64,000 nt of DNA from Chitinophagales bacterium (GCA_038326325.1 JBBQJW010000008.1:13521-77520), one strand, 5' to 3'. Positions 19,035 to 57,669 are shown, counted from the stretch's first letter. The notes: generated by a model not told the origin, from the letters alone. Translations and numbers: made by a program.

Positions 19035-19107
19035 TGACCGATGGTGTAACTGGCAACACGTCTGATTTTGGTTCAGAAGAGTCTAGGTTCGAAACCTAGT
19101 CGGTCAA
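19035..19107 (+). tRNA. tRNA-Gln(TTG), CCA not encoded
   Basis: TGACCGA/TCGGTCA acceptor stem, TCTGA-TTTTGGT-TCAGA anticodon arm, GGTTCGAAACC T-arm. Confidence 0.96.
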
Positions 19108-41854: not shown

Positions 41855-42040
41855 CTAAATAGTTGAAATAATCCGGTTGACTTCTTCTCTTGATATACCC
41901 AACTTAATTTGAAGTTTAGCTATCAGCTCTTCTTTTTTACCTTCAACAAAAAGCAAATCGCAGTTTGTAAGCGAAGCAAATTTCTGCTTGAGTTTCGCTT
42001 TTTGTTCATTCCAGTTGCCGTTCAGTTCTGTACCACTCAT
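41855..42040 (-). CDS. CsbD-like general stress protein
   Basis: GNWNEQKAKLKQKFASLT..DL...GK.EEL...LQIKLG. Confidence 0.85.
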   Translation of the reverse strand: MSGTELNGNWNEQKAKLKQKFASLTNCDLLFVEGKKEELIAKLQIKLGISREEVNRIISTI

Positions 42041-42079: not shown

Positions 42080-42145
42080 CAAAGTTGACAGAGTAGAGCA
42101 CGATAACAGTTACACGCCTTCATAAATAAGTTGCATCATTCACAG
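42080..42145 (-). promoter_or_regulatory. regulon promoter A (CsbD-like gene)
   Basis: Minus strand TGTGAATGATGCAAC...GTGTAAC (21-bp spacing)...CAACTTTG. Confidence 0.75.
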
Positions 42146-42367
42146 ATTGCGATCGGTATTTTATTAATTCTTTAAATCCAGATTCAGTTATTATGAATCA
42201 ATTTATAGAATTCGAAATCCACATTAGCGGACTCTGTTGGTTCATAGGCAAGAACATCGTATGCGAAATTATCTGCCAAAAAAACATTGTATGGATTTAT
42301 TAATACCGCAAAAGTTATTTTGACTTTTGGGTCTCGTTCGAAATATCTAAAGTAAAACATGATGTTG

Positions 42368-42433
42368 CAAATGTGAAAGGTATAATGTCTTAATATGTTA
42401 CACTATTGTTAGTATATGTTGCATCATTCCCAT
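42368..42433 (-). promoter_or_regulatory. regulon promoter B
   Basis: TGGGAATGATGCAAC...GTGTAAC...CACATTTG. Confidence 0.75.
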
Positions 42434-42462
42434 ATTGCCCCGGTGCGAATTGAAAATAATAA

Positions 42463-42753
42463 TTATTTATTTCTTTGCTTCCCAAGAAGAAACGATTGAT
42501 ATACTTTTCCTTGAAATAATAAAAATTCCCTTAGACATTCTTCAGCGGATGCGCTTTGCAATTGCGCTTTATATGTATTTTCAAAACCTTTTGTGTGATT
42601 TCCTTCTTCATGATTTGCTGCAGCCAGCAGATGATACTTAGCAGCTAATTGAAAATGCATAGAGCAATTTTTGTGATTTGTAATTCTTTTTCGATTTTCT
42701 TCTTCAGGATTTTCCAATTGTGAAAATTTGTTTTGGATTTGTTTTAAATTCAT
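42463..42753 (-). CDS. small His/Ala-rich helical hypothetical protein
   Basis: HFQLAAKYHLLAAANHEEGNH pattern. Confidence 0.6.
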   Translation of the reverse strand: MNLKQIQNKFSQLENPEEENRKRITNHKNCSMHFQLAAKYHLLAAANHEEGNHTKGFENTYKAQLQSASAEECLREFLLFQGKVYQSFLLGKQRNK

Positions 42754-43083
42754 TTCATTAACAGTTGACTTGTTTTATTAATTTAATTTCCGTCAACGAC
42801 AGAAGTCAAATTCAAAAAAAAATCCTTTATATGAAATCTGTAATTTGGTTTCTGATAAAAAATTAAATCATTTTCATTTATTTTTAAATGAATAATACAA
42901 AGGGCGGGGAAGGCAGTGACTGTCATGCTTGTTTTTTCAGGATTAAAATTTATATATTCTGCTAACCATTCTTGTGATAAATGAAAAAAGGAAACTAAGG
43001 GCAAACGCAAACGCAATTTCTGAGAAGACAACAACGAGTAAAATTTTCATCAGTATATTTTTTTTGATTGAATTATTTCACGG

Positions 43084-43148
43084 TAAAGGTGTGATTCCAA
43101 ATAACAGAAGTGTTACACAACTTCTGAAATAGTTTACATGATTCACAT
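43084..43148 (-). promoter_or_regulatory. regulon promoter C
   Basis: TGTGAATCATGTAAAC...GTGTAAC...CACCTTTA. Confidence 0.75.
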
Positions 43149-43279
43149 ATTTTCAAAATGTTAAATTGAGTTCTTATTAAATCCGAAAAATCAAATTGTT
43201 ACATATATCCCACATTTTATATTTCTGACGAACAACAGGCTTGGTTACAAGTTACATTTACATAAACCATGATTAAAAC

Positions 43280-43840
43280 TTGAAACTTTACATAAAATAT
43301 ATGGTCAGTTTGCGGTGTAAAATGGTGGTGAAAGACGAGCTGAAAAAACTCGGATTGCATTATATAGTTGTCGAATTAGGAACTGTGGAAGTACTTGAGC
43401 AAATAACAAAAAAGCAACACGACGAGTTGAAAACAAATCTGCTTAAATCAGGTTTGGAATTGCTTGATGATAAGAGAAGTATCCTGATTGAAAAAATAAA
43501 AGGGGTAATAATTGAAATGATTCATTACTCAGATGAATTACCAGCGGTAAATTATTCTGATTTCATCGCTGAGAAATTAAAACACGATTACAATTATCTC
43601 TCAAATGTTTTTTCAGAAGTAAAAGGAATCACGATTCAGCAATTTATAATTATCAATAAAATAGAAAAGGTTAAAGAGTTGTTGTTGTATGATGAATTGA
43701 ATCTAACTGAGATTGCAAATAAAATGCACTACAGCAGTGTAGCTCATCTATCCGCTCAATTCAAAAAAATCACCGGTCTTTCGCCTTCCTATTTCAAACT
43801 ATTAAAACAAAAACGACAAGGCAACTTGGAAAACATGTGA
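43280..43840 (+). CDS. AraC-family regulator, paralog 1
   Basis: MVSLRCKMVV N-terminus; YSSVAHLSAQFKKITGLSP HTH; TTG start. Confidence 0.92.
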   Translation: MKLYIKYMVSLRCKMVVKDELKKLGLHYIVVELGTVEVLEQITKKQHDELKTNLLKSGLELLDDKRSILIEKIKGVIIEMIHYSDELPAVNYSDFIAEKLKHDYNYLSNVFSEVKGITIQQFIIINKIEKVKELLLYDELNLTEIANKMHYSSVAHLSAQFKKITGLSPSYFKLLKQKRQGNLENM

Positions 43841-43899
43841 TTTATATAATTTTTTTTCTGAGTTGTGTAACACTAAAGCAATTCAGAATATGACTTTTA
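43835..43899 (+). promoter_or_regulatory. regulon promoter D (cupin-AraC2-kinase-RR)
   Basis: TGTGATTTATATAAT...GTGTAAC...GACTTTTA. Confidence 0.7.
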
Positions 43900-43980
43900 C
43901 CCTCTTACTTTATAAGTAAGAGATATAAATAAAAGTAACCGGACTAATAAGACTTCATTTACAGCGAATAAAAAAATAAA

Positions 43981-44334
43981 ATGATAAATCAAAACGACAT
44001 TATTGAATTAGAAAAATCAAAGGCGCACATTGTTGTTGAGATTATTGAATACATGGCGAATGCGGTAGTAAGTAAAACAATTATTAAAAAGTCAACTGGC
44101 AACATAACAGTTTCTTCATTTGATGCCGGCGAAGAATTAGCTGAAAAACTTTCTCCGTTTGATAACTATATACAGATTATTGATGGCTCGGCTGATATTA
44201 CTATAAATGGAAAAAAATTAAAACTCACATTAGGCGAAGGCATTGTGATTCCCGCTCATACGAAGCATCACTTTAATGCGAACGAACAATTCAAAATGAT
44301 TTCGACTGTAATTAAAAGCGGTTACGAAGATTAG
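43981..44334 (+). CDS. cupin domain protein
   Basis: SFDAGEEL...QIIDG...IPAHTKH. Confidence 0.85.
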   Translation: MINQNDIIELEKSKAHIVVEIIEYMANAVVSKTIIKKSTGNITVSSFDAGEELAEKLSPFDNYIQIIDGSADITINGKKLKLTLGEGIVIPAHTKHHFNANEQFKMISTVIKSGYED

Positions 44335-44376
44335 TAAAGAGGAAAAATCAGTTATTTGTAATCTTAAATAAATAAA

Positions 44377-44979
44377 TTGAAACTCTTCATAAAGTACATG
44401 GTAAGTAACCGTTGCAAGATGATGGTGAAGGAAGAATTGAAAAAACTTGGTCTTCATTTTATTGTAGTGGAGTTGGGCGAAGTTGATGTAATGGAAGATT
44501 TATCAGCCGACCAAAGAATGAAGCTAAGCATTGGTTTGCATGCATCAGGTTTGGAACTGATGGATGATAAGCGCGCCGTGCTGATAGAAAAAATTATTAA
44601 TGTAATTATTGAAATGGTTCATCACGCCGATGAATTGCCCAAAGTGAATTACTCAGAATATATCAGCGAAAAACTAAATCACGATTATACCTATCTGTCA
44701 AATATGTTTTCAGAAGTGCGGGGCGTCACCATTCAACAATTTATAATCGTGCATAAAGTGGAGCGCATAAAAGAGTTGATACTATACGGCGAGTTGACGC
44801 TAACCGAAATTTCTTACAAAATGAATTACAGTAGCGTGGCGCATTTATCAAATCAGTTTAAAAAAATTACGGGACTTACTCCTTCGCACTTCAAGCAAAT
44901 GAAGGATAATAGAAGAAGTCCCATTGAAGAAATAGGAAATCAATCTGCGGTTCACGAAGATTGGAACGGAATAAAATAA
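44377..44979 (+). CDS. AraC-family regulator, paralog 2
   Basis: MVSNRCKMMV; YSSVAHLSNQFKKITGLTP. Confidence 0.92.
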   Translation: MKLFIKYMVSNRCKMMVKEELKKLGLHFIVVELGEVDVMEDLSADQRMKLSIGLHASGLELMDDKRAVLIEKIINVIIEMVHHADELPKVNYSEYISEKLNHDYTYLSNMFSEVRGVTIQQFIIVHKVERIKELILYGELTLTEISYKMNYSSVAHLSNQFKKITGLTPSHFKQMKDNRRSPIEEIGNQSAVHEDWNGIK

Positions 44980-44984
44980 ACGGG

Positions 44985-47942
44985 ATGAGAAAAAGATTAA
45001 CAAAGCAGGAAGAGGATTTTAATCAGCTTGTCGAATATGAAAAGAGCGGAACTCTTGCTGCACTTATAATTGAATCATCTGATTTGGCTATCAAAACAAA
45101 AACACTCGAAGGAATTATAACATCGTGGAATTATGGTGCTGAAAAAATTTATGGATACAAGGATTCAGAAATAATTGGAAAAAATATAAATTTACTAATT
45201 CCTCCGAGTCACATTGATAAATTTCACGCATTAACAAAGAAAATTATCGAAGGACATACAATTTCTCACTATGAAACCAAAGTAGAAAGAAAGGATGGAA
45301 TTACAATTGATGTTTTACTATCTCTCTCGCCTATAAAAGATAAAAAAGGAAAAGTAATTGGTATTGCTACACTTGACAGGGATATTACTGAATTGAAGGT
45401 TGCAAATAAGGAACTGTTTTTTCAGAATGAAGAGAAAGGAAAGCGAGCCGATGAATTGCTCATTGCCAACAAAGAACTTGCATTTCAAAACAAGGAGAAA
45501 AAAAAACGAGCTGCCGAGTTGGTGATTGCTGATAAGGAACTTGTTTTCCAAAACGATGAAAAAGAAAAACGGGTAATAGAAAGTCTGGAATTGGAAGCAA
45601 TCAGTAATTCTGTAAAAAAGGATTCGCTGTATGCTCGAAGTTTAATTGAAGCATCAACCGACCCATTGGTTACAATTTCACCAGAAGGAAAAATTACTGA
45701 TGTAAACGAAGCGTCGGTAAGTGTAACAGGTATGTCGCGCGAGAAATTAATCGGCACTGATTTCTCCGATTATTTTACAGAGCCGGAAAAGGCGCGTGAA
45801 GGATACAAGCAGGTATTCGATAAATCATTTGTTGCAGATTATCCACTAACCATTCGACACAAGAATGGAAAACTGACCGATGTACTTTACAATGCTTCTG
45901 TTTATAAGGATGAAACCGGGAAAGTGCTTGGAGTGTTTGCCGCCGCGAGAGATGTTACAGCGCAAAAATTACTTTCGAAATATTCGCTCAGTTTAATTGA
46001 AGCGAGTCTTGACCCCTTGGTTACAATTAATACAGAAGGAAAGATAACCGACATGAATGAAGCTTGGGCTAAAATTACAGGTATGTCGCGCGAAAAATTA
46101 ACCGGCACTGACTTCTTCGATTATTTTACTGAGCCACAAAAGGCGCGTGAAGTGTATCAGGAAATTTTTGAAAATGGATTTGTAAAAAATTATCCTCTGA
46201 CAATAACGGATGGAAAATTAACTGATGTATTATTCAATGGCTCCGTTTATAAAGACGACAATGGAAAGGTGTTGGGGGTGGTAATTGTAGCAAGAGATGT
46301 AACAGAACAAAAAAAAATTGGGACGGAATTAATTGAAGCAAAAGTTTTTGCCGAACTCGCAACTGAAATCGCTGAAGAAGCGAAATTGAAAGCCGAAAGC
46401 GCAACACGAATTGCGGTGGAAGCCGTGAAAGCAAAGCAACAATTTCTCTCGAATATGAGTCACGAAATTCGCACGCCTATGAATGCGATTATCGGATTTA
46501 CAAAAGTGGTTTTGAAAACTGATTTAACGACGAAACAAAAGGAATATTTGCAGGCGATAAAAATGAGTGGCGACGCTTTGATCGTGCTTATCAATGATAT
46601 TTTGGATTTAGCGAAAGTGGATGCTGGTAAAATGTCGTTCGAACAAACACCATTTAAACTCGCTCAGTCACTTTCCTCCATGTTGCATTTGTTCGAAACA
46701 AAAATTCAGGAAAAAAATTTAGCGCTTGTAAAAAAATACGACGATACAATTCCTGAAGTTTTATTGGGCGACTCGGTGCGATTGCATCAGATAATTTTAA
46801 ATCTTGTAACCAACGCTGTGAAGTTTACCAGTAAAGGAAAAATTACCGTGAGCGCAAAATTGATTCGGGAAGATGAAGAAAAAGTATCGGTTCAGTTTTC
46901 GGTTACTGATACGGGAATTGGGATTGCGGAAAATAAAATTGAAAAAATATTTGAAAACTTTGAGCAGGCCTCAAGCGGAACTTCAAGATTGTATGGAGGA
47001 ACGGGATTGGGATTGGCGATTGTAAAACAACTGGTACTTGCGCAGGGCGGAACCATTGAAGTTAAAAGCAAAGTTGATGAAGGTTCTGAATTCAGTTTTG
47101 TTTTAATGTTTGAGAAAACAAAAGCAAAGGCGGAAATGGAATCAGGAATTGTAGAAACTGATACAGAAATAAAAGACATTAAAATATTAGTGGTTGAAGA
47201 CATCGCACTCAATCAACTGCTGATGAAAACACTGCTCGATGATTTTGGTTTTGGCTGTGAAATCGCGATGAATGGAAAAATCGCCATTGAGAAATTGGAG
47301 AAAAATTCGTACGATATTATTCTGATGGATTTGCAAATGCCGGAAATGAATGGCTTCGAAGCGACTGAATACATCCGGAACACATTGAATTTAAACATTC
47401 CAATTATCGCCTTAACGGCTGATGTAACAACAGTTGATTTGGCAAAATGCAAGGCGGTAGGCATGAATGATTATATTGCAAAACCGGTTGACGAAAGATT
47501 ATTGTACACTAAAATTATCGGGATGATAAAAAAGCCCATACTTCCAAATCTTGTCGATTCACATCCCCCAAAAAAAATTAAATATACCGACCTTAGTTAT
47601 TTGAATCATCGCACAAAATCAAATCCGAAATTAATGATGGAAATGATTTCGTTGTACCTTGAACAAACCCCGCCGTTGGTCAGCAGCATGAAATTAAGTT
47701 TTCAAAACAAAGACTGGAGTTCATTGTATTCATCCGTGCATAAAATGATTCCATCGTTTTCCATTATGGGAATAAGTATTGATTATGAAAACATGGCGAA
47801 AACAATTCAGGAATTCGCCGGCACTCAGAAACAATCCGAAGGCATTTATGAGTTAGTGTTACAGCTTGAAAATATTTGCGTGCAGGCGTGTTTGGAATTG
47901 GAAGAAGAGTTTAATACGATTAAAAATAAAAATGATGAATAG
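44985..47942 (+). CDS. cytoplasmic hybrid histidine kinase (3 PAS, HisKA, HATPase, REC, Hpt)
   Basis: SHEIRTPMN, GGTGLGL, ILMDLQMP and VHKMIPS motifs; no TM segment seen. Confidence 0.95.
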   Translation: MRKRLTKQEEDFNQLVEYEKSGTLAALIIESSDLAIKTKTLEGIITSWNYGAEKIYGYKDSEIIGKNINLLIPPSHIDKFHALTKKIIEGHTISHYETKVERKDGITIDVLLSLSPIKDKKGKVIGIATLDRDITELKVANKELFFQNEEKGKRADELLIANKELAFQNKEKKKRAAELVIADKELVFQNDEKEKRVIESLELEAISNSVKKDSLYARSLIEASTDPLVTISPEGKITDVNEASVSVTGMSREKLIGTDFSDYFTEPEKAREGYKQVFDKSFVADYPLTIRHKNGKLTDVLYNASVYKDETGKVLGVFAAARDVTAQKLLSKYSLSLIEASLDPLVTINTEGKITDMNEAWAKITGMSREKLTGTDFFDYFTEPQKAREVYQEIFENGFVKNYPLTITDGKLTDVLFNGSVYKDDNGKVLGVVIVARDVTEQKKIGTELIEAKVFAELATEIAEEAKLKAESATRIAVEAVKAKQQFLSNMSHEIRTPMNAIIGFTKVVLKTDLTTKQKEYLQAIKMSGDALIVLINDILDLAKVDAGKMSFEQTPFKLAQSLSSMLHLFETKIQEKNLALVKKYDDTIPEVLLGDSVRLHQIILNLVTNAVKFTSKGKITVSAKLIREDEEKVSVQFSVTDTGIGIAENKIEKIFENFEQASSGTSRLYGGTGLGLAIVKQLVLAQGGTIEVKSKVDEGSEFSFVLMFEKTKAKAEMESGIVETDTEIKDIKILVVEDIALNQLLMKTLLDDFGFGCEIAMNGKIAIEKLEKNSYDIILMDLQMPEMNGFEATEYIRNTLNLNIPIIALTADVTTVDLAKCKAVGMNDYIAKPVDERLLYTKIIGMIKKPILPNLVDSHPPKKIKYTDLSYLNHRTKSNPKLMMEMISLYLEQTPPLVSSMKLSFQNKDWSSLYSSVHKMIPSFSIMGISIDYENMAKTIQEFAGTQKQSEGIYELVLQLENICVQACLELEEEFNTIKNKNDE

Positions 47943-48369
47943 CGGAAATAAAATAAAACTTTTTCTTGTCGACGACGACGCTGTATTTCTGAAATCAATG
48001 GAAATAGAATTTCTGCAACACGCCGATTTTGAAATTGAAACTTACGCGACCGGCGAATTATGTGTTGAAAGTTTATCGCACAATCCCGATGTGGTTATTC
48101 TTGATTATAATTTAGATGGCATTGATAAAAATGCTATGGACGGAATTGCAACATTGGATAAAATAAAAGCATTCAACTCAGAGATTCCGGTTATCATGCT
48201 TTCGTCGCAGGATAAAATTGATATTGCTATTAGTTGCATGCACCATAAGGCATTTGATTATGTAATGAAAAGCGAAACAGCTTTTATGCGGTTGCAAAAA
48301 TGTATCACTATTATTTTCAATCAGAAAAAATTAGAGAAAGAATTGAACTGGTACATGGAGCGGGCATAA
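47932..48369 (+). CDS. single-domain response regulator
   Basis: LVDDD...ILDYNL...DYVMK. Confidence 0.9.
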   Translation: MMNSGNKIKLFLVDDDAVFLKSMEIEFLQHADFEIETYATGELCVESLSHNPDVVILDYNLDGIDKNAMDGIATLDKIKAFNSEIPVIMLSSQDKIDIAISCMHHKAFDYVMKSETAFMRLQKCITIIFNQKKLEKELNWYMERA

Positions 48370-48428
48370 GCAGTAACATTCAACTGCATATTTGTTTCCA
48401 GTTATGATATTCAAATTTCTATATCCAT

Positions 48429-48494
48429 GTGTGAACGATGTAACATTTTTAACAAATTGTGTAACAGTTAACCTAACCTCTGCCTTTACTTTTG
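48429..48494 (+). promoter_or_regulatory. regulon promoter E
   Basis: TGTGAACGATGTAAC...GTGTAAC...TACTTTTG. Confidence 0.8.
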
Positions 48495-48529
48495 CACCGT
48501 AACAATTCAGTTGCAAAAAAAATTAATCA

Positions 48530-48970
48530 ATGAAAAAAATAATTTATTTCACGGCTTTATCGGTTATGATTTCAGGAAGTCTTTTCACTTCTTGTGCTTC
48601 AAACGAAAAGAAAGTTGAAAACGCACAGGCAAATGTAGAAGACGCGAAACAAGATTTAACTGACGCGAAAAATAAATTGGCTGCTGAGTACCCTATGTTT
48701 AAATCTGATGCTGAAAAGAAAATCGCTGAAAATGAAAAGCGAATTAATAGTTTAAAAGCAAAGCCATATAAAACAGGTAATGCTGAGTTAGATGAGACAC
48801 ATCAAACAAAAATTGATAACCTTGAAAAGAAGAATGCAGAGTTAAGAAACAGATTATATACTTACGAACACGAGCATTCTGATTGGCAGGAATTCAAGCG
48901 TGGTTTTAATCTTGACCTTGATGCGATTGATAATGCCTTTAAAGATTTGGATAAGGATAAAGGGAATTAA
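48530..48970 (+). CDS. coiled-coil lipoprotein
   Basis: Lipobox FTSC; WQEFKRGF. Confidence 0.8.
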   Translation: MKKIIYFTALSVMISGSLFTSCASNEKKVENAQANVEDAKQDLTDAKNKLAAEYPMFKSDAEKKIAENEKRINSLKAKPYKTGNAELDETHQTKIDNLEKKNAELRNRLYTYEHEHSDWQEFKRGFNLDLDAIDNAFKDLDKDKGN

Positions 48971-48995
48971 GTATTAAGAATTTAAAACTGTTTTC

Positions 48996-49020
48996 GAAAC
49001 GACCCTTTTGGGGCGTTTCT
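48996..49020 (+). terminator. probable terminator
   Basis: GAAACGACCC-TTTTG-GGGCGTTTC. Confidence 0.5.
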
Positions 49021-49075
49021 ATTTAACTATATTAATTAACCGGAAACAATCAGTTTTCATCATTCACCTTATCAA

Positions 49076-49142
49076 TGTGTAATTGATATAACTTATTACT
49101 GAATTTGTGTAACACTCAAGCTGGTTTGAGCAATCACCTTTA
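49076..49142 (+). promoter_or_regulatory. regulon promoter F
   Basis: TGTAATTGATATAAC...GTGTAAC...CACCTTTA. Confidence 0.72.
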
Positions 49143-49195
49143 AATAAAAATTCCGGCGTTTACGGAAAAAATAAATAATTCTTTTAAAACTTTAA

Positions 49196-49684
49196 TTGGC
49201 CAAACACAATCAATTAAATGAAATCTTAAGCAATGTCATCAGCGTATTGGTGGCGGACGATGATTATGATGATTATTTATTATTCGAACACGCGATAAAT
49301 GCGTTGCGGCTCCCATTTACCATTACACATTTAAGCAAGAGTAAAAGCCTGATGGATGCCTTATCGTTGAATCGCTTCGACATTATTTTTCTTAATTTAT
49401 TCATTCCCGTTAAAACCGGAATGAAGTGCTTGACGGAAATAAAACAGAATGAAAAGTATAAGAATGTTCCAGTGGCATTCTTAACACGAATAGATGACGA
49501 ACTTCTAATTAGAAGATGTTTCGGAATGGGAGCTAATAATTATATATTGAAGCTACATTCTGTAAAAGACATGATTGTATTACTTAAAAATTTATTTGCA
49601 CAACCTGATTTGAAATTAACAGGAACAATGAAACCAACTGTTACACTTTATTTTCCTTTATTCAATCAATTTTCTAAAAATTAA
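49196..49684 (+). CDS. atypical response regulator (phosphoacceptor D replaced by N)
   Basis: VADDD...IIFLNL...GANNYILK. Confidence 0.75.
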   Translation: MAKHNQLNEILSNVISVLVADDDYDDYLLFEHAINALRLPFTITHLSKSKSLMDALSLNRFDIIFLNLFIPVKTGMKCLTEIKQNEKYKNVPVAFLTRIDDELLIRRCFGMGANNYILKLHSVKDMIVLLKNLFAQPDLKLTGTMKPTVTLYFPLFNQFSKN

Positions 49685-51207
49685 TTGTAGTGTCCGCTGC
49701 GTTTTTTATTTTCAAGATACAATAACAAAAATATTTTTTGTTCAGTTTGTGTCTGATGAATAGAAGTGCGATTGGGGGCATATCGGTCATTAATATAAAT
49801 GTATTCCTCTATCCCAATACTCAGGTTCTTTATGAGTGTAACAGTAATTCTGGGTTTTAAAATTCCAACGAAATTATCGCCGGGAAATCCGACATAAGTA
49901 TGAATCCAGAAATAGTAAGCGATGAAAGTAGCTGTCGCAGCGTTGCCTAAATTAATGGTGCTTTCAAGTTTTCCTTGCAATCCTCCCCCGAAATTATAAT
50001 CTCTGAAAAGCGTTGAATCAGGACCAAATCGAGTACTGCTTCCCGCAAAAGGAACTACAGCCAAATGAAGTGATGTATAAAGGTTTGATTCTTTATGAAT
50101 ATTGAGTCTTGAAATTATTCCTTCACCGAATCCAATGGTTCCCAATTCAAAAGTTTCATTATCCCAATAATCATAATATTGAAATCCGCCCGTGAGTAAA
50201 TCAAGTTTTCCCATTTTGCGATTTCGAGTAAATAAATTTCCAAATCCTGAAACATGATTTAATAATTTTCTTCCAGCACCATAACTCAAATCCATTCTGA
50301 TTTTGAAAACATCAAATGGTTTTCGTTTTATTTTTTCAAAAGGATTGCCGTAATCAATCTGAAGATTCAGAATTTCATTTACTTGACCTGTAAAAAATTC
50401 TTTGTTTGTATTCACTTTATGAATCCCTGCAAACAATGAAATATTACACGGCTCTTTCTGATACACTTCTTTATGTGTTACACGAAACATTTTTCCATTC
50501 GTAAGTCTGTTCAATGCACCTGTCGGACATAGTAAACCTGCTGTCACTTCCCGAACTACCCGTTCGGCTCCGCGACTTTGATCATCAAGAACATTTGTAC
50601 TCAAGCGATAAAGTATTTCTCCGAGAAAAACGCCACTGACAGGGGTATTAATAATATCGTTATAAGATGGTCGAGATGTTTCTCCAAAATACTCCCACAT
50701 CAAACTTCCACCAATTGCGAATGGAACCGATTCAAAAAAACTATAGCCGTTTGAACGAGCCGCTTTATAATACAGCGAGCCGGAATAAGGATGCCCGATA
50801 AAATTTATTCCGAATTTATCAGAGTCCCATTCCCACCCTGTTTTCATATTATACTTCCATGATTCTGGACCTATATGAGAGTAATCAAAATTAAAAACAT
50901 ATCTATCAATAGACCATATTAAACCATTTACTCCAATGACTTCTATTGTAGGAATCCAGATTGGATACTTTCTGTTATATAAAGTGTCATCATCAGTAAG
51001 GTTGCCATACATGTTGTGTTTTCGCTTTGTTCGAGGAGAATCGGACAGAAAAACAAAATCATGTGTTCGTTTGAATTGTGAATAGTAATTCAGATTTTTT
51101 TCCTGAGGGTGAATGGAAAAATTATTTCTTCCAATGGAAACAAAATCCTGCGCATTAATTGTTGAAGTTAATAGAAAAGAAAAAATGAATAAGTAGAAAT
51201 ATTTCAT
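49681..51207 (-). CDS. DUF3943-like outer membrane protein
   Basis: NFIGHPYSGSLY...ARSNG...WEYFGE...PSYND. Confidence 0.8.
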   Translation of the reverse strand: MKYFYLFIFSFLLTSTINAQDFVSIGRNNFSIHPQEKNLNYYSQFKRTHDFVFLSDSPRTKRKHNMYGNLTDDDTLYNRKYPIWIPTIEVIGVNGLIWSIDRYVFNFDYSHIGPESWKYNMKTGWEWDSDKFGINFIGHPYSGSLYYKAARSNGYSFFESVPFAIGGSLMWEYFGETSRPSYNDIINTPVSGVFLGEILYRLSTNVLDDQSRGAERVVREVTAGLLCPTGALNRLTNGKMFRVTHKEVYQKEPCNISLFAGIHKVNTNKEFFTGQVNEILNLQIDYGNPFEKIKRKPFDVFKIRMDLSYGAGRKLLNHVSGFGNLFTRNRKMGKLDLLTGGFQYYDYWDNETFELGTIGFGEGIISRLNIHKESNLYTSLHLAVVPFAGSSTRFGPDSTLFRDYNFGGGLQGKLESTINLGNAATATFIAYYFWIHTYVGFPGDNFVGILKPRITVTLIKNLSIGIEEYIYINDRYAPNRTSIHQTQTEQKIFLLLYLENKKRSGHYN

Positions 51208-51376
51208 TTTGGATTTATTTTATTTTTTTGAAAAAAAATGATAAAGGAATTTTAATAATCATCCGAATTAAATTTTAAGGAGTGATTGCTAAATAATATG
51301 CTACACAAATCTGTGTCCACCTTATTCAAATGATGAAGAAGAAAAAAGTGTTGGCATTGTTATTTCTGAATACCAA

Positions 51377-52171
51377 GTGATGAGAGAATATATAACCACG
51401 AAATTGATTAAGGCAGGGGAGCGAGTATCTCGTTCGAAATCGTGGATGCATTTAAAGAAAAAACATCCTAAAGTTCATGCGCTGATTAAAAGCAGAATTA
51501 CACTGAAAGATTTCAGTGGTCTTCCGATTTCGTTATTGGTAATTGCAATGGCAACAAATCTTTTATTGATCAGTCAGTTTGTAGAAGATGTCATTAACGA
51601 TAAGTCGTTCATTAACATTGACAATGCCGTTTCAAAAAAATTATTTTCGATTCGAAGCGAAAGCGTTGCTGATTTCTTTTATTGGTTCACACAGTTGGGA
51701 AGTGTAACAGTAGTGACAATTATTTCTATTGTTGTAATCGCAATCGCGCTTTGGAAACGGATGCCGCATTTAATTGTACCGCTACTAATTTCTGTTTTGG
51801 GATGCAGTCTGACAATGTATCTCGGTAAGAAAATTTTTAAAATACAGCGACCACACCAACTCGCTTATTATCACATTGATAATTATTCATTCCCTAGCGG
51901 GCATTCAGCTATTGCCGTTGCATTTTATGGATTGCTATTTTATTTTTTCATTCGTCATAATTTTTCATTCCGCACACGCATAATTTTATTTTTTTCAGCA
52001 ATTGTATTTGCACTGATGATTGGCTTCAGTCGGCTTTATCTCTGTGAACATTTTTTAAGTGATGTGCTCGCAGGATTTATGCTCGGTGGTTTATGGTTAT
52101 TAGTAAGTATCAGCACGCTCGAGTGGGAGCAATACAAATTGATGAAAAGAAAACCAGCCACATATTTGTAA
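51377..52171 (+). CDS. membrane PAP2 phosphatase
   Basis: K.....RP, SFPSGH and SRLYLCEHFLSDV motifs. Confidence 0.9.
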   Translation: MMREYITTKLIKAGERVSRSKSWMHLKKKHPKVHALIKSRITLKDFSGLPISLLVIAMATNLLLISQFVEDVINDKSFINIDNAVSKKLFSIRSESVADFFYWFTQLGSVTVVTIISIVVIAIALWKRMPHLIVPLLISVLGCSLTMYLGKKIFKIQRPHQLAYYHIDNYSFPSGHSAIAVAFYGLLFYFFIRHNFSFRTRIILFFSAIVFALMIGFSRLYLCEHFLSDVLAGFMLGGLWLLVSISTLEWEQYKLMKRKPATYL

Positions 52172-52389
52172 ATATTTCCAGGTAAAATTCAATCACATGA
52201 AATTTTCACTGACGGGATTCGTTCAGAACAATTTTTCATTATTCAATTAAATTCTTTATTCTAAATCAAATACTCGGGTTCCATTCTTGTAATGATATAT
52301 ATGCTCCGGAGATTCAATTATCATAATTCACTATAACAGGAATTTGATAACTATGATTTAACAGGGAAATTTTAAACAAAAAACTTAGG

Positions 52390-53343
52390 ATGAAAAAAAT
52401 GGCTCTCAGAATAATTTTATTATCAGTCGTGATTTTTATTCAATTTGGGGAAGTTTATTCCCAAAATTCCCCAATTGATTCTTTACTGAAAACACCAACT
52501 GATACTGTTACACTAATTCCCGGAAAAGATTCCACAGTAAAAGCTCAATCTTCGATTCATCCATACAAAATAAGATTTTGGCTGAGTGGAGGTATTTCAG
52601 TAATAGGATCAATAGGCGATTATTACGCGATACCACGAATACTCGGAAAGAAAAAAATTACAGACGAAGAACTTGCGGCGTTAAACCCATCAATTCTAAC
52701 CCGACTCGACCGCTGGGCTCTAATGCAAGACCCAACCAAGCGTGTTTACTTCGACCACATGTCCGATAATGTGATAACTGGAATTTTTCTTCTACCTGTT
52801 ACACTTGCTTTTGATAAAAATATTCGTCACGACGGATTGAAATTGCTCCTCATGTATTACGAAAGTCAGGCAGTCACTTTCAGTATTTTCAATTACAGTT
52901 TTCTTGGACCAACCTTCCAGAATAAATTTCGACCAATGACATATTACACCAGTATTCCTGTTGGTGACAGAAATATCGGCAACAACCGCAATTCATTTTT
53001 TGCGGGCCATGTATCATCAGCAACTGCGGCTTCTTTTTTCATGGCGAAAGTTTATTGCGACTATCATCCGAACCTTGGTGCGAAAAAATATTTAATATAT
53101 GCAGCGGCAACCGTTCCTTCCCTTGCAATGGGTTATTTAAGAATGCGGGCGCTAAAACATTTTCCTTCAGATATACTTGCTGGAATGACCGTCGGTGCTG
53201 TATGCGGAATTGCAATTCCTGAGTTGCATGCTCTGAAATACAAACATTTGAAACTCGCATTCTTCGCTTCACCAAAGGGAGCAAGCGGATTGACAATGAA
53301 CTGGAATCTCGCTGAAGGAACGAACAAAAAATTAAAATCATAA
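52390..53343 (+). CDS. PAP2 family protein with signal peptide
   Basis: FRP, SFFAGH and R....KHFPSD motifs. Confidence 0.88.
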   Translation: MKKMALRIILLSVVIFIQFGEVYSQNSPIDSLLKTPTDTVTLIPGKDSTVKAQSSIHPYKIRFWLSGGISVIGSIGDYYAIPRILGKKKITDEELAALNPSILTRLDRWALMQDPTKRVYFDHMSDNVITGIFLLPVTLAFDKNIRHDGLKLLLMYYESQAVTFSIFNYSFLGPTFQNKFRPMTYYTSIPVGDRNIGNNRNSFFAGHVSSATAASFFMAKVYCDYHPNLGAKKYLIYAAATVPSLAMGYLRMRALKHFPSDILAGMTVGAVCGIAIPELHALKYKHLKLAFFASPKGASGLTMNWNLAEGTNKKLKS

Positions 53344-53356
53344 AAATTAAAATCAC

Positions 53357-53551
53357 ATGAACTTAAAAAGAATTTTTGGCGGTATACTTACTACAGCAGG
53401 AATTGTCGGATTGATTTATGGAGCAGTACTATTCATGAATACAGGGGGCGCACAGCGCGATATCAGAGGAATAATAATTTTTGCATTACTGGGAATTGTT
53501 TTCTTCATAACTGGCATTAGTTTAATAAGAACAACAAAAGACGAATCTTAA
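53357..53551 (+). CDS. small two-TM protein
   Basis: MNLKRIFGGILT...GISLIRTTKDES. Confidence 0.75.
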   Translation: MNLKRIFGGILTTAGIVGLIYGAVLFMNTGGAQRDIRGIIIFALLGIVFFITGISLIRTTKDES

Positions 53552-53558
53552 ATTATTT

Positions 53559-55673
53559 ATGGATATAGCAACTCAGGATTATTCGAAACTTTCCGAAGAG
53601 GTAAAAAAATATGTGCGATCATTTTTTAATGATATTACAAGTAGTCGCTATAAGTATCACAACCTTGCTCATACTGAAAGCGTGGTTGCTGCCGCAAACC
53701 AGATAGCAGATCATTATAAACTGAACGAGCATGATTTATTTATTGTGAATGCAGGTGCTTGGTTTCACGATGTCGGTTACTTTACGGTGCTCGAAAACCA
53801 CGAAGAAAAAGGTGTTGCCATCGCCGAAAACTTTTTTAAAGACAAAGGGCTTGATGCAGACACGATTGCTGGAGTGAAGAACTGTATTCTCGCCACACGC
53901 ATTCCGCAGAAGCCAACTAATTTATTAGAGCAAATTATTTGCGACGCAGATTTATTTCATCTGGGTACTGATAAATTTATGGAGCGCAACAAGGAAGTGC
54001 GCAACGAAATAGAAGAACTTACCGGAAACAAGATAAAGAAAAAAGTCTGGCGCGAACAGAGTATTGAATTGCTGGAAGGTCATCATTACTTCACAGACTA
54101 TTGCAATCAGTTACTCGAAGCAAAAAAAAAAGAAAACCTAAAAGCGCTGCAAACGATGAAAGAAAACGCGCCTGAAAAAAAACATGCACATCAGGATGAA
54201 GAAAAAAAACATGGGCATCATCACTCCGACAAAAAAAAACATTCACATCCAGAGTCAGAAATTGTGATTGACCAAAAAAAATCGAAGAGCGAAATAAAGG
54301 AGGACGAAAAGATTGAAAGTTTAAGAGCGAAAGATGCACCTGCCGATAAAGGAGTTCAAACCATGTTCAGAATCACATCGGGAAACAACCAGAAACTAAG
54401 TGATATGGCAGACAACAAGGCCCATATCATGATAACGGTGAATTCAATTATTCTCTCTGTAGTTATCGGAGTTTTATTCCGCAAACTCGACCCCGACAAT
54501 TCAATTGTCTATCCTACAATGCTCTTTATCGCAATCAGTTTAGCAACAATCATATTCGCTATTCTCGCTACGCGCCCATCCATTCCAAACGGAATATTTA
54601 CAAAAGAAGATATTACGAATAAAAAAGTGAATCTTCTGTTCTTCGGAAATTTTTATAAGATGTCCCTCGAAGATTATACCGAAGGCATGTTCCATGTGAT
54701 GGAAGACCGAAGTTTTCTTTACTCCTCACTCATCAAAGATGTGTACGCACAAGCTGTTGTGCTCGGTCGTAAGTATCGTCAGTTGCGTATCTCTTACAAC
54801 ATTTTCATGTTTGGGTTAATCGCCTCAGTACTCGGTTATGTAATCGCTTTAATGTTTTTTACCCCCGAACCGTTACAGACAGTTCTCCAAACAAATCTGT
54901 ATAAAAACCCTACTGGCTACGACCTCTCACAACCCGAAAAAATTTCATTGCCATCTGCTTTAAACGAAGTGTCGGGCATAGCATTCAATAAAGGAAATTC
55001 CGATACAATTTATGCCCAGCAAGATGAAAATTCATTGCTATTTCATTTTCAATTAGGTGATAAAAATGAATTCACCACAAAATTTGGAAAGAAAGGCGAT
55101 TACGAAGACCTTACAATTTGCAAAAGAAATGTTACACTGTTACGCAGTGATGGAGTGCTTTTTACTTTTCCACTCGGAGAGGCAAATCAATCAGAGTTAA
55201 CTGATGCAAAAGAATGGGATAATTTGTTGCCTGGTGCCGAATACGAAAGCATGGCATCCATTGAATCAACAGGAGAAATATTCGTTTTGTGCAAGCACGA
55301 TAAAGGAAGCAAAGACGAAAAATCAAAAGGATATATTTTCAAACAGGCATCCGACGGCAGTATCATCTCCTCCGGAAAATTCAATATCGACTGGGACGAA
55401 ATAGCAGCAAAAACAGGTGACAAGAAAACTGATTTCCGTCCATCAGGAATGGCGTTGAATCCGTGCACAAACGAGTGGTATATTATTTCATCAGTCAACA
55501 AACTTCTAGTTGTTACCGATCCCAATTTTAAAGTTAAAGAAGTTTATTCTCTCAAGCCAACTACCTTCCGTCAACCCGAAGGCATTGCGTTCGACGACGA
55601 TTGCAATCTATATATTTCTAACGAAAAAACTGCAAACACAAAACCATCCATTCTAAAGTTTACTTATCAATAA
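53559..55673 (+). CDS. fusion: HD domain, His-rich linker, DUF5706/Pycsar-effector-like TM domain, SdiA-regulated-like propeller
   Basis: YHNLAHT/FHDVG/CDADL; LSDMADNKAHIMITVNSII...KYRQLRISY; EVSGIAF/GDYEDL/QPEGIAFD. Confidence 0.8.
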   Translation: MDIATQDYSKLSEEVKKYVRSFFNDITSSRYKYHNLAHTESVVAAANQIADHYKLNEHDLFIVNAGAWFHDVGYFTVLENHEEKGVAIAENFFKDKGLDADTIAGVKNCILATRIPQKPTNLLEQIICDADLFHLGTDKFMERNKEVRNEIEELTGNKIKKKVWREQSIELLEGHHYFTDYCNQLLEAKKKENLKALQTMKENAPEKKHAHQDEEKKHGHHHSDKKKHSHPESEIVIDQKKSKSEIKEDEKIESLRAKDAPADKGVQTMFRITSGNNQKLSDMADNKAHIMITVNSIILSVVIGVLFRKLDPDNSIVYPTMLFIAISLATIIFAILATRPSIPNGIFTKEDITNKKVNLLFFGNFYKMSLEDYTEGMFHVMEDRSFLYSSLIKDVYAQAVVLGRKYRQLRISYNIFMFGLIASVLGYVIALMFFTPEPLQTVLQTNLYKNPTGYDLSQPEKISLPSALNEVSGIAFNKGNSDTIYAQQDENSLLFHFQLGDKNEFTTKFGKKGDYEDLTICKRNVTLLRSDGVLFTFPLGEANQSELTDAKEWDNLLPGAEYESMASIESTGEIFVLCKHDKGSKDEKSKGYIFKQASDGSIISSGKFNIDWDEIAAKTGDKKTDFRPSGMALNPCTNEWYIISSVNKLLVVTDPNFKVKEVYSLKPTTFRQPEGIAFDDDCNLYISNEKTANTKPSILKFTYQ

Positions 55674-55732
55674 TTTCCACGATAATCCATTTTGTAATAC
55701 AAACTGAAAAAAATTTCTGAAGCTATTTTTTT

Positions 55733-56533
55733 TTAGATTAAATGCAATATGGCGTTTTTCAGTTTTCTCTTTGCCGATTCCCATTCAATTCCTGCTCCAA
55801 CCAACAATGAACTATTGCTGCCATAACCAATTGCAAAAGATAATAACCAGCCATTTTTAAAGGCATAACCATAACCTGCTGAAAAATCATTTTGTTGTTC
55901 TGAAAAAGATCTGTTTCCATAAACCTCGCAAAAAAGAAGACTCTTACTTACAGGAGTAAAAATGGTGGCAATGCCATAATCAAATAAATTATAAACTGTT
56001 ACACCTTTAGGTTTCCCAATTATTGTATAGCCAAGATTAATAGTTGTAAAAAATTTACCTGTAGTTTTATTAGCGATAAACAATGGTGTAAAATCAATTT
56101 TTCCGGTTCCGATTAATTCATTTCGGGCGGTTGGAAATTTTGTTTCCAGTGCAATCGAAAAAAAAGGGCGAATTTTATTTTCTTCAACCACTTTCAGAAA
56201 CAATGTTAATTCCGCATCCCCTAAACCGGTGGCGGATGCACCACTATCCGGGTCTATACTGGTAACAACAGGCACTTCAGTTGAAATCATAAACTCTTTT
56301 GATAGCCGGTACTTCACATTTGCATTCCACGAAAATTCTTTAAGGTCTGTTTGTTTTCCAAATTCAAAAGTTGTTTCAAGATGAATTTGATGAGCATCCA
56401 AAGGTTTTGCATCATCGGTTTTCAGATTTTGCCCTTTAGACTTAAAAGAAAATAAATTGCCTAAAATCATAAACATGAAAAATGCCCGTGATGTCATCAA
56501 TCTGTTACAGTCAACTCTTAATTTAAAATTCAT
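55733..56533 (-). CDS. putative beta-barrel 'transporter' family protein
   Basis: GLGDAEL...KFPTA...GTGK.D...NLGY. Confidence 0.6.
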   Translation of the reverse strand: MNFKLRVDCNRLMTSRAFFMFMILGNLFSFKSKGQNLKTDDAKPLDAHQIHLETTFEFGKQTDLKEFSWNANVKYRLSKEFMISTEVPVVTSIDPDSGASATGLGDAELTLFLKVVEENKIRPFFSIALETKFPTARNELIGTGKIDFTPLFIANKTTGKFFTTINLGYTIIGKPKGVTVYNLFDYGIATIFTPVSKSLLFCEVYGNRSFSEQQNDFSAGYGYAFKNGWLLSFAIGYGSNSSLLVGAGIEWESAKRKLKNAILHLI

Positions 56534-56796
56534 TGGATATTACTAATCATAATAAAACACACATTATGCCATGTGATGACTAACTGATTACCAATAACAG
56601 AAATGAAGTCTGAAAAATATTTTGAAGAAAAATTTAGCGTAACGGTTTAATTAATTCAAACTATATTTTTCGTTCACTGCTTTTTTTCCACCCACGCGTA
56701 GGACTCTTTTCTCAATTGGGTTTTATTTTTAGAAAACGACGAGGAAATAAGAAAAGTACTTATTAATAAATTTCGCAGCCAGGTAACGCTTAAGAA

Positions 56797-57567
56797 CTAC
56801 AACTTAAAATTTAACCCAACCATTAAAGCTGCAGTCGCGTTGTGGGTACTGCTTCTTCCATCATTATAAAAATTAACTGCTGGTAAACCAAGGTAGCTAA
56901 CTGTTACATCTTTATTTTCCACATCAGAAAACCCGTAATCAAAACGAAGGTGAGCAGTCACTTCAAAGTGAGAAAAAATATTCAACCCCCCGCCAAGTGC
57001 AAGTATGCCATCAAGTGTAAGAGGTTTGTATAAGTCTTTCGGTTCAATGTTGGTGTTAGGATAAGTATGGTCTTTGCCGTTTACTTCCTGTGCCACTCCC
57101 TGAAGAAAATTCAATTGCGGACCAACCAGGCAATTGAAATAGGCAACTTTACTTCTATCTGAAGAAAGCGAAAGCATTAGCGGCACTTTAATAAAATTTA
57201 ATTCTGCAAGCGCCGTGTAATTTCCGGTTACGATTTCCCCTGCCAAAAAGGATTGCAACGCAACTTCACTACTGTAATTATTATTTTCTGAGGCACCGTT
57301 TATATTTCCGGTAAATGCCTGCCCCTCTCTTGAAAAAAGAATATCAACCGCAAACCCGATGTGATTCATATTATATGCCGTTCCGAACCCGAATGATGCA
57401 TAACCGAAATGCTTTGCATAATCTAATTCATCACCTGCATTTGCATCAGTTTTATTTAATAGCGCAGTAAACTCCGGGTTTAATCTTAATCCAAATGACA
57501 AATTGTTTTGTGCATTTGATTGCGTAAAGACGAATGTGACTGCAATCAGCAGTATAGTTTTTTTCAT
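56797..57567 (-). CDS. outer membrane beta-barrel (PorT-like) protein
   Basis: Signal peptide; FIKVPLML, GPQLNFL, RFDYG; terminal FKL. Confidence 0.75.
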   Translation of the reverse strand: MKKTILLIAVTFVFTQSNAQNNLSFGLRLNPEFTALLNKTDANAGDELDYAKHFGYASFGFGTAYNMNHIGFAVDILFSREGQAFTGNINGASENNNYSSEVALQSFLAGEIVTGNYTALAELNFIKVPLMLSLSSDRSKVAYFNCLVGPQLNFLQGVAQEVNGKDHTYPNTNIEPKDLYKPLTLDGILALGGGLNIFSHFEVTAHLRFDYGFSDVENKDVTVSYLGLPAVNFYNDGRSSTHNATAALMVGLNFKL

Positions 57568-57605
57568 GAATTTGATTTTGAAATTGTAATGAAATTATTA
57601 CAATA

Positions 57606-57669
57606 CAAATGTCATTTCAGGAAGTTGGCCAGTGTTACAGTATTCGAATTAAAGGTTACACAATTCACT
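57606..57669 (-). promoter_or_regulatory. regulon promoter G
   Basis: AGTGAATTGTGTAAC...CTGTAAC...GACATTTG. Confidence 0.72.

Follow-up and report, generated by a model that had tools for sequence, protein, structure and literature searches.

The DNA analyzed here is a stretch of 64,000 nt from a Chitinophagales bacterium (GCA_038326325.1 JBBQJW010000008.1:13521-77520), hereafter the window, in which seven promoters share one two-box element. The locus raises the question of which protein reads this element, and to what end. A preliminary description, made from the sequence of the window alone, had assigned the seven promoters to a local, sigma-independent stress regulon driven by AraC-family proteins. 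We find that the element is present at 18 sites in the genome and that it is linked to one very conserved small regulator of the AraC type; the promoter set is probably an undescribed stress-protection gene network. The reading that best fits the sequences, to which we give roughly two chances in three, is that two protomers of the regulator activate sigma-A promoters devoid of a -33 box by means of direct repeats with a 21-bp period.

The composite pattern TGTGAATNATGYAAC-N14-GTGTAAC (TGTGAATnATGYAAC-N14-GTGTAAC) was searched for allowing up to three mismatches. Seven matches were obtained in the 64-kb window, exactly those that had been proposed, and none in 100 shuffles that preserve dinucleotide composition. 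In all seven cases, a -7-like box is located 20 or 21 nt past the proximal box. The boxes as originally written need correction at three sites: site 7 has CTGTAAC as its proximal box, and at sites 4 and 6 the distal box departs from the consensus by three mismatches.

The spacing between both boxes was examined in the whole genome (3.68 Mb). When the distal box (three mismatches at most) was combined with TGTAAC, a gap of 14 nt yielded 19 matches, while each of 25 other gaps between 4 and 29 nt yielded from 0 to 8. With no more than two mismatches, the 14-nt gap yielded 15 matches and the remaining gaps, summed, 4. The 21-bp register claimed at the outset is thus specific.

Neither box is informative when taken alone. 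The distal box (up to two mismatches) has five matches in the window versus 1.9 expected, a number reached in 4 of the 100 shuffles; being weakly above chance there, it was replaced by the composite pattern as the test. The proximal heptamer GTGTAAC is uninformative by itself in this genome: the window has 57 copies (4.09 expected) and the whole genome 3046, where a first-order Markov model predicts 254, and the word sits within a palindrome, S-TGTWACA-S, that is hyper-abundant genome-wide. Because of this abundance, the test must rest on the composite and its spacing. TGTAACA is found at 6482 genomic sites (589 expected) and TGTAACAG at 4257 (89 expected). About 89% of the TGTAACA copies are intragenic (crude set of open reading frames, ORFs), in both orientations and mostly in the frame xxT-GTW-ACA. 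The palindrome, which resembles HIP1 of cyanobacteria, is a separate phenomenon that overlaps the box by sequence.

The promoters and the genes next to them are listed below. Promoter coordinates run from the start of the distal box to the end of the -7 box, which is the last sequence given for each; position weight matrix (PWM) scores are those of the genome-wide matrix described further on.

41855..42040, minus strand, CsbD-like gene, target of promoter 1 (Pfam CsbD, E 1.2e-8, under the gathering score)
42080..42144, minus strand, promoter 1: TGTGAATGATGCAAC, N14, GTGTAAC, N21, CAACTTTG; composite at 42109-42144, 0 mismatches, PWM 47.6; upstream of the CsbD gene and a 140-aa ORF
42368..42432, minus strand, promoter 2: TGGGAATGATGCAAC, N14, GTGTAAC, N21, CACATTTG; composite at 42397-42432, 1 mismatch, PWM 40.9; upstream of a 58-aa ORF
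43084..43147, minus strand, promoter 3: TGTGAATCATGTAAA, N14, GTGTAAC, N20, CACCTTTA; composite at 43112-43147, 1 mismatch, PWM 53.6; upstream of small ORFs and a 96-aa ORF, divergent from AraC1
43280..43840, plus strand, AraC1, regulator of 186 aa with a TTG start (Pfam HTH_18/HTH_AraC, AlphaFold2 model, Foldseek, orthologs); its stop codon lies within the distal box of promoter 4
43836..43899, plus strand, promoter 4: TGTGATTTATATAAT, N14, GTGTAAC, N20, GACTTTTA; composite at 43836-43871, 3 mismatches, PWM 40.9; upstream of the cupin-AraC2-kinase-receiver operon
43981..44334, plus strand, small cupin protein of 117 aa, first gene past promoter 4 (Pfam Cupin_2)
44377..44979, plus strand, AraC2, paralog of AraC1 (67% identical, helix-turn-helix regions near-identical)
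44961..47942, plus strand, hybrid histidine kinase of the same operon, with three PAS domains, HisKA, HATPase and receiver (Pfam, gene spacing)
47935..48369, plus strand, receiver-only response regulator, 144 aa from ATG, last gene of the operon
48430..48494, plus strand, promoter 5: TGTGAACGATGTAAC, N14, GTGTAAC, N21, TACTTTTG; composite at 48430-48465, 1 mismatch, PWM 50.8; upstream of a 146-aa lipoprotein that weakly matches the sll1863 stress-protein family (NCBIfam, under the family cut-off)
49078..49142, plus strand, promoter 6: TGTAATTGATATAAC, N14, GTGTAAC, N21, CACCTTTA; composite at 49078-49113, 3 mismatches, PWM 50.1; upstream of a receiver-only protein at 49196-49684 (Pfam Response_reg)
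57606..57669, minus strand, promoter 7: AGTGAATTGTGTAAC, N14, CTGTAAC, N20, GACATTTG; composite at 57634-57669, 3 mismatches, PWM 38.2; upstream of an outer-membrane beta-barrel gene at 56797-57567 (Pfam OMP_b-brl_2)

To describe the element itself, 154 sites were compared, 18 of them from this genome and 136 distinct ones from relatives. Alignments and column frequencies show GAA 9 nt upstream of both TGTAAC boxes (TGTGAATnATGTAAC for the distal one and, for example, cAGAAgTTGTGTAAC in the spacer). The element is a direct repeat of two units of about 15 bp (nnnGAATnrTGTAAC) with a 21-bp period. Of the two copies the distal one is strong; the weaker, proximal one stops at roughly the usual place of the -33 box (TTTG). 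No TTTG box is found in the aligned sites about 19 nt upstream of the -7 box; the end of TGTAAC and variable bases occupy that place, in agreement with the earlier assignment of the proximal box to the -33 position. The TGTGA start of the distal box prompted a comparison with the symmetry of CRP/FNR-type sites (TGTGA-N6-TCACA), which was discarded upon finding no inverted half-site in the aligned sites.

Downstream of the proximal box, TTT is present at an offset of 23-26 in 138 of the 154 sites. The profile of the -7 box reads cAnCTTTG (C 51%, A 76-86%, any base, C 64%, T-T-T, G 62%). Compared with the sigma-A consensus of Bacteroidota, TAnnTTTG, at -12 to -5 according to passages of PMC9723704, the A and the TTT are conserved and the first T is present in only 20% of the sites. 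The sigma motifs SM1-6 of Flavobacterium psychrophilum, as those passages describe them (PMC9723704), do not include any that resembles the element.

With a -7-like box of Bacteroidota type at a fixed distance in most sites, the term sigma-independent is not apt for these promoters. Conservation of the -7 box at that distance points instead to the housekeeping sigma factor acting with an activator. By analogy with known systems, this is how a weak core promoter is laid out when an activator serves it from a class II position: AraC at I1-I2, XylS at Pm and RhaS recognize direct repeats with a period of about 21 bp, of which the proximal one touches the -35 element.

A weight matrix was then built from 15 aligned sites, covering 4 bases upstream, the distal box, the spacer, the proximal box and 2 bases after it. 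Over both strands of all 67 contigs the scores are bimodal, with 18 sites at 29.8 or above and the next one at 14.0. Three of the 18 (C1:71230, C62:3695 and C8:100870; coordinates carry the name of the contig, the window being C8:13521-77520) are outside the training set. Fifteen are on the contig of the window, in a 46-kb stress island that extends from C8:55664 to C8:101884, seven of them within the window and eight past its end. As the sites are 18 in this genome and are also found across the phylum, the proposal of a local regulon of seven promoters was too narrow. An ATG-started ORF of at least 35 aa, on the same strand and starting within 260 nt, follows 17 of the 18 sites, and the regulon would comprise 17-18 transcription units in this genome.

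The target genes include two coding for CsbD-like proteins, together with a 67-aa ORF, several small ORFs and the operon coding for the cupin, AraC2, the PAS hybrid kinase and the receiver protein. A clearer second CsbD gene is located at C8:101986-102171, downstream of another site. To these are added the lipoprotein with a weak sll1863-family match, the receiver-only protein and the outer-membrane beta-barrel protein, as well as Dps and a sigma-54 activator with a receiver domain. Other sites precede a Q/N-rich protein followed by DUF5670, YtxH and further ORFs, with a low-affinity iron permease gene within the same stretch; a small membrane protein with an OmpA-family protein behind it; DoxX together with a type III polyketide synthase and an isoprenylcysteine carboxyl methyltransferase (ICMT); an ice-binding-like protein; and, on contig C62, YceI. 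The island also holds a Pmp3-domain protein.

Taken together, the targets look, from their sequences, like a regulon for protection against stress and of the envelope. The stress character attributed to them from the outset is borne out by two CsbD proteins, Dps, YtxH, DUF5670, the Pmp3-domain protein of the island, DoxX and ice-binding-like proteins. The label YegP-like could not be confirmed for the 140-aa protein, which has no match in Pfam or NCBIfam.

Both AraC paralogs of the window match HTH_18 and HTH_AraC in Pfam (HTH_18 E 2e-14 and 8e-16), and two more paralogs are encoded elsewhere in the genome, on contigs C23 and C1. NCBIfam holds no model specific for this regulator and gives just generic AraC-family matches far under the cut-offs. 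An AlphaFold2 model of AraC1, obtained with an alignment of 33 sequences (mean column identity 75%), has a mean predicted local distance difference test value of 87.2. It starts with a beta-alpha-beta-beta-alpha-beta domain (residues 1-62), continues with a long helix that acts as linker (65-83) and ends in the AraC domain, which has seven helices and two helix-turn-helix motifs.

When the C-terminal part was compared by Foldseek with the PDB, AraT, YesN, an E. coli regulator (3mkl), AdpA, MarA, Rns and ToxT were matched (E 3e-5 to 4e-3, template modeling score to the target, TM, 0.67-0.81). The C-terminal domain, of about 100 aa and with two helix-turn-helix motifs, is that of the AraC/XylS family, and in sequence geometry the sites correspond to the dimeric class II operators of this family, with direct repeats of about 21 bp and the proximal one at the -35 region. 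The predicted complex of two AraC1 copies gave a median of 0.43, and a single control 0.28, values that weigh neither in favor of dimerization nor against it.

The N-terminal part is not the cupin of AraC proper; it is HMA-like, and a separate cupin of 117 aa is encoded next door. Its Foldseek matches are weak and correspond to metallochaperones of the CopZ and GolB types (E 0.06-0.1, TM 0.65-0.73), and AraC1 has no match to the Pfam HMA family. The metal motif of HMA domains, MxCxxC, is absent: the 33 aligned sequences read M-V-S-x-R-C, with Ser in place of the first Cys, and Met8, Arg12 and Cys13 are invariant in them.

We looked next at whether the element accompanies the regulator in other organisms. 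With up to three mismatches, the pattern was counted in 41 related genomes, with 41 matches (G017), 30 (G002), 21 (G000, the genome under study), 17 (G020), 14 (G012), 6 (G005) and 4 (G025); the reversed pattern, used as a control, gave 0-2 per genome. The 12 related genomes that lack a regulator match at E 0.001 or better have 0-2 pattern matches each, all with three mismatches.

Eighty related loci carry full-length orthologs that are 73-82% identical. They come from Chitinophagaceae, Saprospiraceae, Cytophagales, Flavobacteriales, Bacteroidales, Pontibacter, Algoriphagus, Rhodocytophaga and Empedobacter, and also from Balneolaceae, Ignavibacteria and Melioribacteraceae bins. Such conservation is unusual for a transcription factor. 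The weight matrix, at a threshold of 12, has 86 matches in 58 of the 80 loci and none in the reversed sequences. In 30 of them (match ends combined with hit positions; 25 when counted at one fixed coordinate) the distal box begins inside the last codons of the regulator (...AAC ATG TGA), as it does at position 43836 of the window. AraC-paralog genes are directly downstream of a site in at least nine other loci.

When the proteins of the island were compared with the 80 loci by tblastn, the regulator was the only one common to all of them; next came the cupin (29 loci), followed by CsbD (11-16), the ice-binding-like protein (13), the PAS kinase (12) and DUF5670 (11). The first ORF downstream was taken for 125 distinct matches, and 80 of these ORFs were scanned against Pfam. 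The families found are CsbD, DUF5670, cupin, AraC paralogs, receiver-only, ice-binding-like, Dps, DoxX, YceI, Pmp3, OmpA and beta-barrel proteins, and Band 7. Several of the targets are Lys/Glu-rich peptides of about 38 aa, as judged from their sequences and not by a Pfam scan.

For a phyletic test, 201 genomes drawn evenly from the phylum were searched with a generalized pattern, TGTGAWNNATGTAAY-N14-RTRTAAY, allowing one mismatch. A regulator homolog at E 1e-20 or better is present in 109 of them. The pattern is present in 20 genomes, 19 of which also have the homolog. Leaving aside G000, it was found in 13 of 24 genomes whose best match is at E 1e-60 or lower. Weaker homologs are present in 84 genomes, 5 of which have the pattern; among the 92 genomes devoid of a homolog it occurs in 1, G113, as a single match at one mismatch. 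The reversed pattern gave five single matches in the 201 genomes. The motif is therefore not equally frequent in genomes with and without the regulator (13/24 versus 1/92). The link with this AraC subfamily is sustained both by this co-occurrence and by the position of the motif, which in many orders adjoins or overlaps the stop codon of the regulator gene.

Further evidence comes from two paralogous subfamilies. The first, represented by 20 loci (L110-L129) taken from one family of the phylum sample, comprises homologs 35-41% identical and of the same length and architecture. In place of the YMVSLRC of the stress subfamily they carry a genuine HMA motif, NMVCSHC (CxxC). Many of these genes follow a gene whose product has a C-terminus like that of cation-diffusion-facilitator efflux proteins (recognized by eye, with no family search). 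Directly past their stop codon lies a tandem repeat, cTGCACgagatttacannaatcTGCAAt, also with a 21-bp period: TGCAC-N16-TGYAA occurs within 63 nt of the stop codon in 15 of the 20 loci and only once in the remaining 178,326 positions. In the 80 stress-type loci (606 kb, both strands) it has 3 matches, and the stress weight matrix has none in the 20 CxxC loci. The predicted recognition helices differ as well, being GITIQQFII and SSVAHLSNQFKK in the stress subfamily versus GKSIERYYI and SSQQHFSRQFKK in the CxxC subfamily, which is probably an uncharacterized metal-responsive regulator.

The second paralogous subfamily (NMVSDSC, 199 aa, 36% identity) is found in G004 (L131), G002 (L132) and G005 (L130), and two of the three loci have GAATTTTATAAC twice at a 21-bp period past the stop codon, followed by a CCTTTG box. 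Its gene follows a putative ABC ATPase gene, identified by eye and with no family search. Three paralogous regulators hence show three operators of one geometry and in one placement, as expected if each protein binds the repeat beside its own gene. The stress subfamily presumably derives from a metal-sensing HMA-AraC ancestor and lost the first Cys.

Several observations weigh against activation of these promoters by the AraC-type regulator. In the genome under study, C1:71230 lacks both a -7 (TTTG) box and an ATG-started ORF of 35 aa or more within 260 nt; its proximal box is GTGTTAC and it adjoins the gene of the fourth regulator paralog (C1:72049-72603). The first position of the -7 box, mostly C (51%, with T in 20%), could mean a different holoenzyme and not merely a weak box. 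G039 has an ortholog 77% identical and no match with up to three mismatches; the matrix detects in it a weak variant (score 20) on the stop codon. G005 has six motif matches, and the only homolog in its assembly is 37% identical and belongs to another subfamily; either its true ortholog was left unassembled or the motif-regulator rule may have exceptions. Eleven of the 24 genomes with close orthologs have no match at one mismatch or fewer. Related genomes are not independent, so that co-occurrence counts overstate the support; co-occurrence can also reflect joint inheritance of the whole island, and the regulator gene could be a conserved target instead of coding for the binder.

In the mechanism that we favor, two protomers would occupy the phased repeats, at about -69 to -54 and -48 to -33, and would recruit RNA polymerase in a class II manner, thereby helping the sigma-A holoenzyme to use a sub-consensus -7 box. 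The protomers would be AraC1, AraC2 or both, as their recognition helices are nearly the same. No site was found by the matrix upstream of AraC1 in this genome, and hence AraC1 may be the constitutive entry point. The site on its stop codon would drive the cupin-AraC2-kinase-receiver operon, and AraC2 would then amplify or sustain the response. Since a motif promoter precedes that operon, the positive feedback put forward in the preliminary description is plausible, as is a cascade; along with the AraC link and the stress targets, it is what stands of that interpretation, whereas sigma independence, the restriction to seven local promoters and the YegP-like assignment are not supported as they were worded. 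Recurrent members of the regulon, namely the cupin, the PAS hybrid kinase and the receiver-only proteins, would be candidate inputs for the inducing signal.

Among the other explanations, the one that survives best, improbable as it is, holds that the AraC protein does bind and acts as a repressor, sitting on the -33 region and blocking RNA polymerase until a stress signal arrives. The proximal site covers the -33 position, some proteins of the family are repressors, and nothing in the sequence indicates the direction of regulation. Against it, promoters that lack the -33 TTTG and mostly also the T of the -7 TA would be weak when left alone, as is typical of activated promoters, and a second site located upstream in helical phase is the classical arrangement of an activator. 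We infer activation from these features.

Slightly less probable is that the repeats are read by another DNA-binding protein, for instance an unannotated small one from the island or a regulator whose gene lies elsewhere; the AraC genes would then be mere conserved members or neighbors of the regulon. Co-occurrence and adjacency cannot separate a regulator from a constant target, G005 has its six sites without a close ortholog in the assembly, and several ORFs of the island have no family assignment. Yet no other gene of the island is common to the 80 loci, the geometry of the sites suits a protein with two helix-turn-helix motifs, and the recognition helices of the three AraC subfamilies differ in step with the 21-bp repeats beside their genes.

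We consider it rather unlikely that an alternative sigma factor recognizes these promoters, with TGTAAC as the -35 element, cAnCTTTG as the -10 element and the upstream box as an accessory. Elements of the GTAAC kind at -35 are typical of extracytoplasmic function (ECF) sigma factors, and the -7 box favors C, not T, as its first base. Although AAC is present as in ECF promoters, the next conserved block is 20-21 nt away, which exceeds their 16-17 nt spacer, and it is cAnCTTTG, with no CGT-type -10 element conserved. That block resembles the sigma-A -7 box in sequence and place, as described in passages of PMC9723704. Moreover, no sigma gene is found in the island or in common to the 80 loci, and the second, stronger copy of the box 21 bp upstream would be left unexplained. 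As regards sigma-54, inspection of the aligned sites reveals no -24/-12 element (TGGCAC-N5-TTGC): there is no GG 10 nt upstream of the TTGC that some sites contain.

Finally, the notion that the similarity is a by-product of the S-TGTWACA-S excess or of recent promoter duplication, with no regulatory meaning, can draw on the approximately 12-fold over-representation of GTGTAAC in the genome and on the packing of 15 of the 18 sites into 46 kb, but we rejected it as very improbable, because the composite with its fixed spacing is absent from shuffles, the spacers vary between copies while boxes and distances are constant, and the composite is conserved in genera with neither ACGT depletion nor a strong excess of the palindrome (G017, many orders).

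The depletion just mentioned is an observation in its own right. ACGT is nearly missing from the genome, with 30 sites versus about 9,400 expected (one example in the window is at 19058, C8:32578). Contig C4 has seven of the 30 (175-184 kb), of which at least two fall within sequence that we take to be conserved 16S rRNA. Another 14 are distributed over three small contigs, C32, C60 and C62, that may be foreign or belong to another strain. Loci retrieved from the same genus share the depletion (G002, 0 versus 120 expected; G005, 1 versus 38), while those from other genera are not so depleted (e.g., G017, 49 versus 123). This suggests either that an ACGT-specific restriction activity has selected very strongly against the site or that mutation or repair is biased. 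On C62, a 3.9-kb contig, a regulon-type promoter (C62:3660-3695, minus strand) precedes the YceI-like gene; this contig has four ACGT sites, unlike the rest of the genome, and may come from a related organism in the same sample.

Two other observations relate to the regulon and its island. Behind some of the promoters there is a shared 5' leader, GTAAYAA-loop-TTRTTAC-ACC followed by a short GC hairpin, that precedes unrelated genes (CsbD-like, ice-binding-like and YtxH-like). It was located at C8:96965-97030 (outside the window), at L002:3934-3999 and at eight loci of relatives; the 10 sites were chosen by eye among 14 flagged by a word search of 160, and they include those at C8:96901 and C8:100870 and others in G002, G005, G012, G017, G020 and one Balneolaceae bin. 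RNAalifold, applied to nine leaders, predicts two small hairpins with compensatory changes in 7 of 10 pairs. A search of L001 and L002 against Rfam at the gathering threshold gave no family, the leader past C8:96901 spanning the junction of both segments and thus not being covered whole. The leader may be an undescribed cis-regulatory RNA. The second observation concerns a 704-aa protein encoded at 53559-55673 of the window (plus strand), within the island and with no motif promoter, which combines an HD domain with a PycTM domain (Pycsar effector transmembrane module) and may be an effector of the defense type or of nucleotide signaling.

With regard to known systems, AraC at araI1-I2, XylS at Pm and RhaS at rhaBAD share with the regulator a domain with two helix-turn-helix motifs, direct half-sites at 21 bp and a proximal half-site that abuts the -35 or -33 element. 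Here, an HMA-like N-terminal domain (ferredoxin fold, SxxC) stands where those systems have a cupin, the promoter appears to belong to the Bacteroidota -33/-7 class, binding is predicted, and the targets are the 17-18 stress and envelope transcription units and not one catabolic operon. What differs from the AraC/XylS class II systems is the sensor domain, the type of promoter, the size and content of the regulon and its conservation throughout the phylum.

MarA, SoxS and Rob of E. coli are likewise AraC-family activators of a stress regulon with many promoters, partly at class II positions. They bind as monomers to one 20-bp box, whereas two phased sites are always present here; their structures (1bl0, 1d5y and 7w5w) are among the Foldseek matches, in a relation limited to the DNA-binding fold and at 12-21% identity. 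The closest DNA-binding domains are those of the REC-AraC regulators AraT and YesN (6swi and 3lsg; 28-30% identity, E 3e-5 to 2e-4). The likeness extends to the hybrid kinase and the receiver-only proteins encoded in the regulon, but no receiver is fused to the regulator, and any phosphorelay input would act in trans.

The HMA(CxxC)-AraC regulators of Bacteroidota that are encoded next to putative metal-efflux genes have the same three-part architecture, length and 21-bp operator past the stop codon, at 35-41% identity. They differ in keeping MxCxxC (SxxC in the stress subfamily), in an operator with TGCAC/TGCAA instead of TGTAAC and in their recognition helices. Sigma-B of Firmicutes, RpoS of Proteobacteria and EcfG of Alphaproteobacteria control similar kinds of targets (CsbD, Dps, YtxH, small membrane and envelope proteins); they are alternative sigma factors, whereas an activator at sigma-A promoters is proposed here. 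No description of the motif, of the regulator or of a matching system was found in open-access papers and preprints.

To our knowledge, no master regulator of the general stress response is known in Bacteroidota. It is conceivable, if doubtful, that the regulator is the master switch of this response in Bacteroidota and allied phyla, which lack RpoS and SigB. An HMA-AraC protein, once a metal sensor and now short of one Cys in its CxxC, would then read a stress signal in place of an alternative sigma factor. Input could come by way of the only invariant Cys or from the cupin, PAS kinase and receiver-only proteins encoded along with it. The regulator would activate dozens of promoters from a rigid tandem operator, with a cascade from AraC1 to AraC2, and the leader with two hairpins would add a second layer of control for a subset of them.

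As regards the proposed network itself, such a combination of a very conserved regulator and a rigid operator would make the regulon predictable from sequence in thousands of environmental genomes, and the motif places many small genes of unknown function in one stress network, which is of use for annotation. The system would also offer an experimental handle, consisting of one gene and one 36-bp site, and it would show that a family of metal sensors has been re-used for the control of stress protection.

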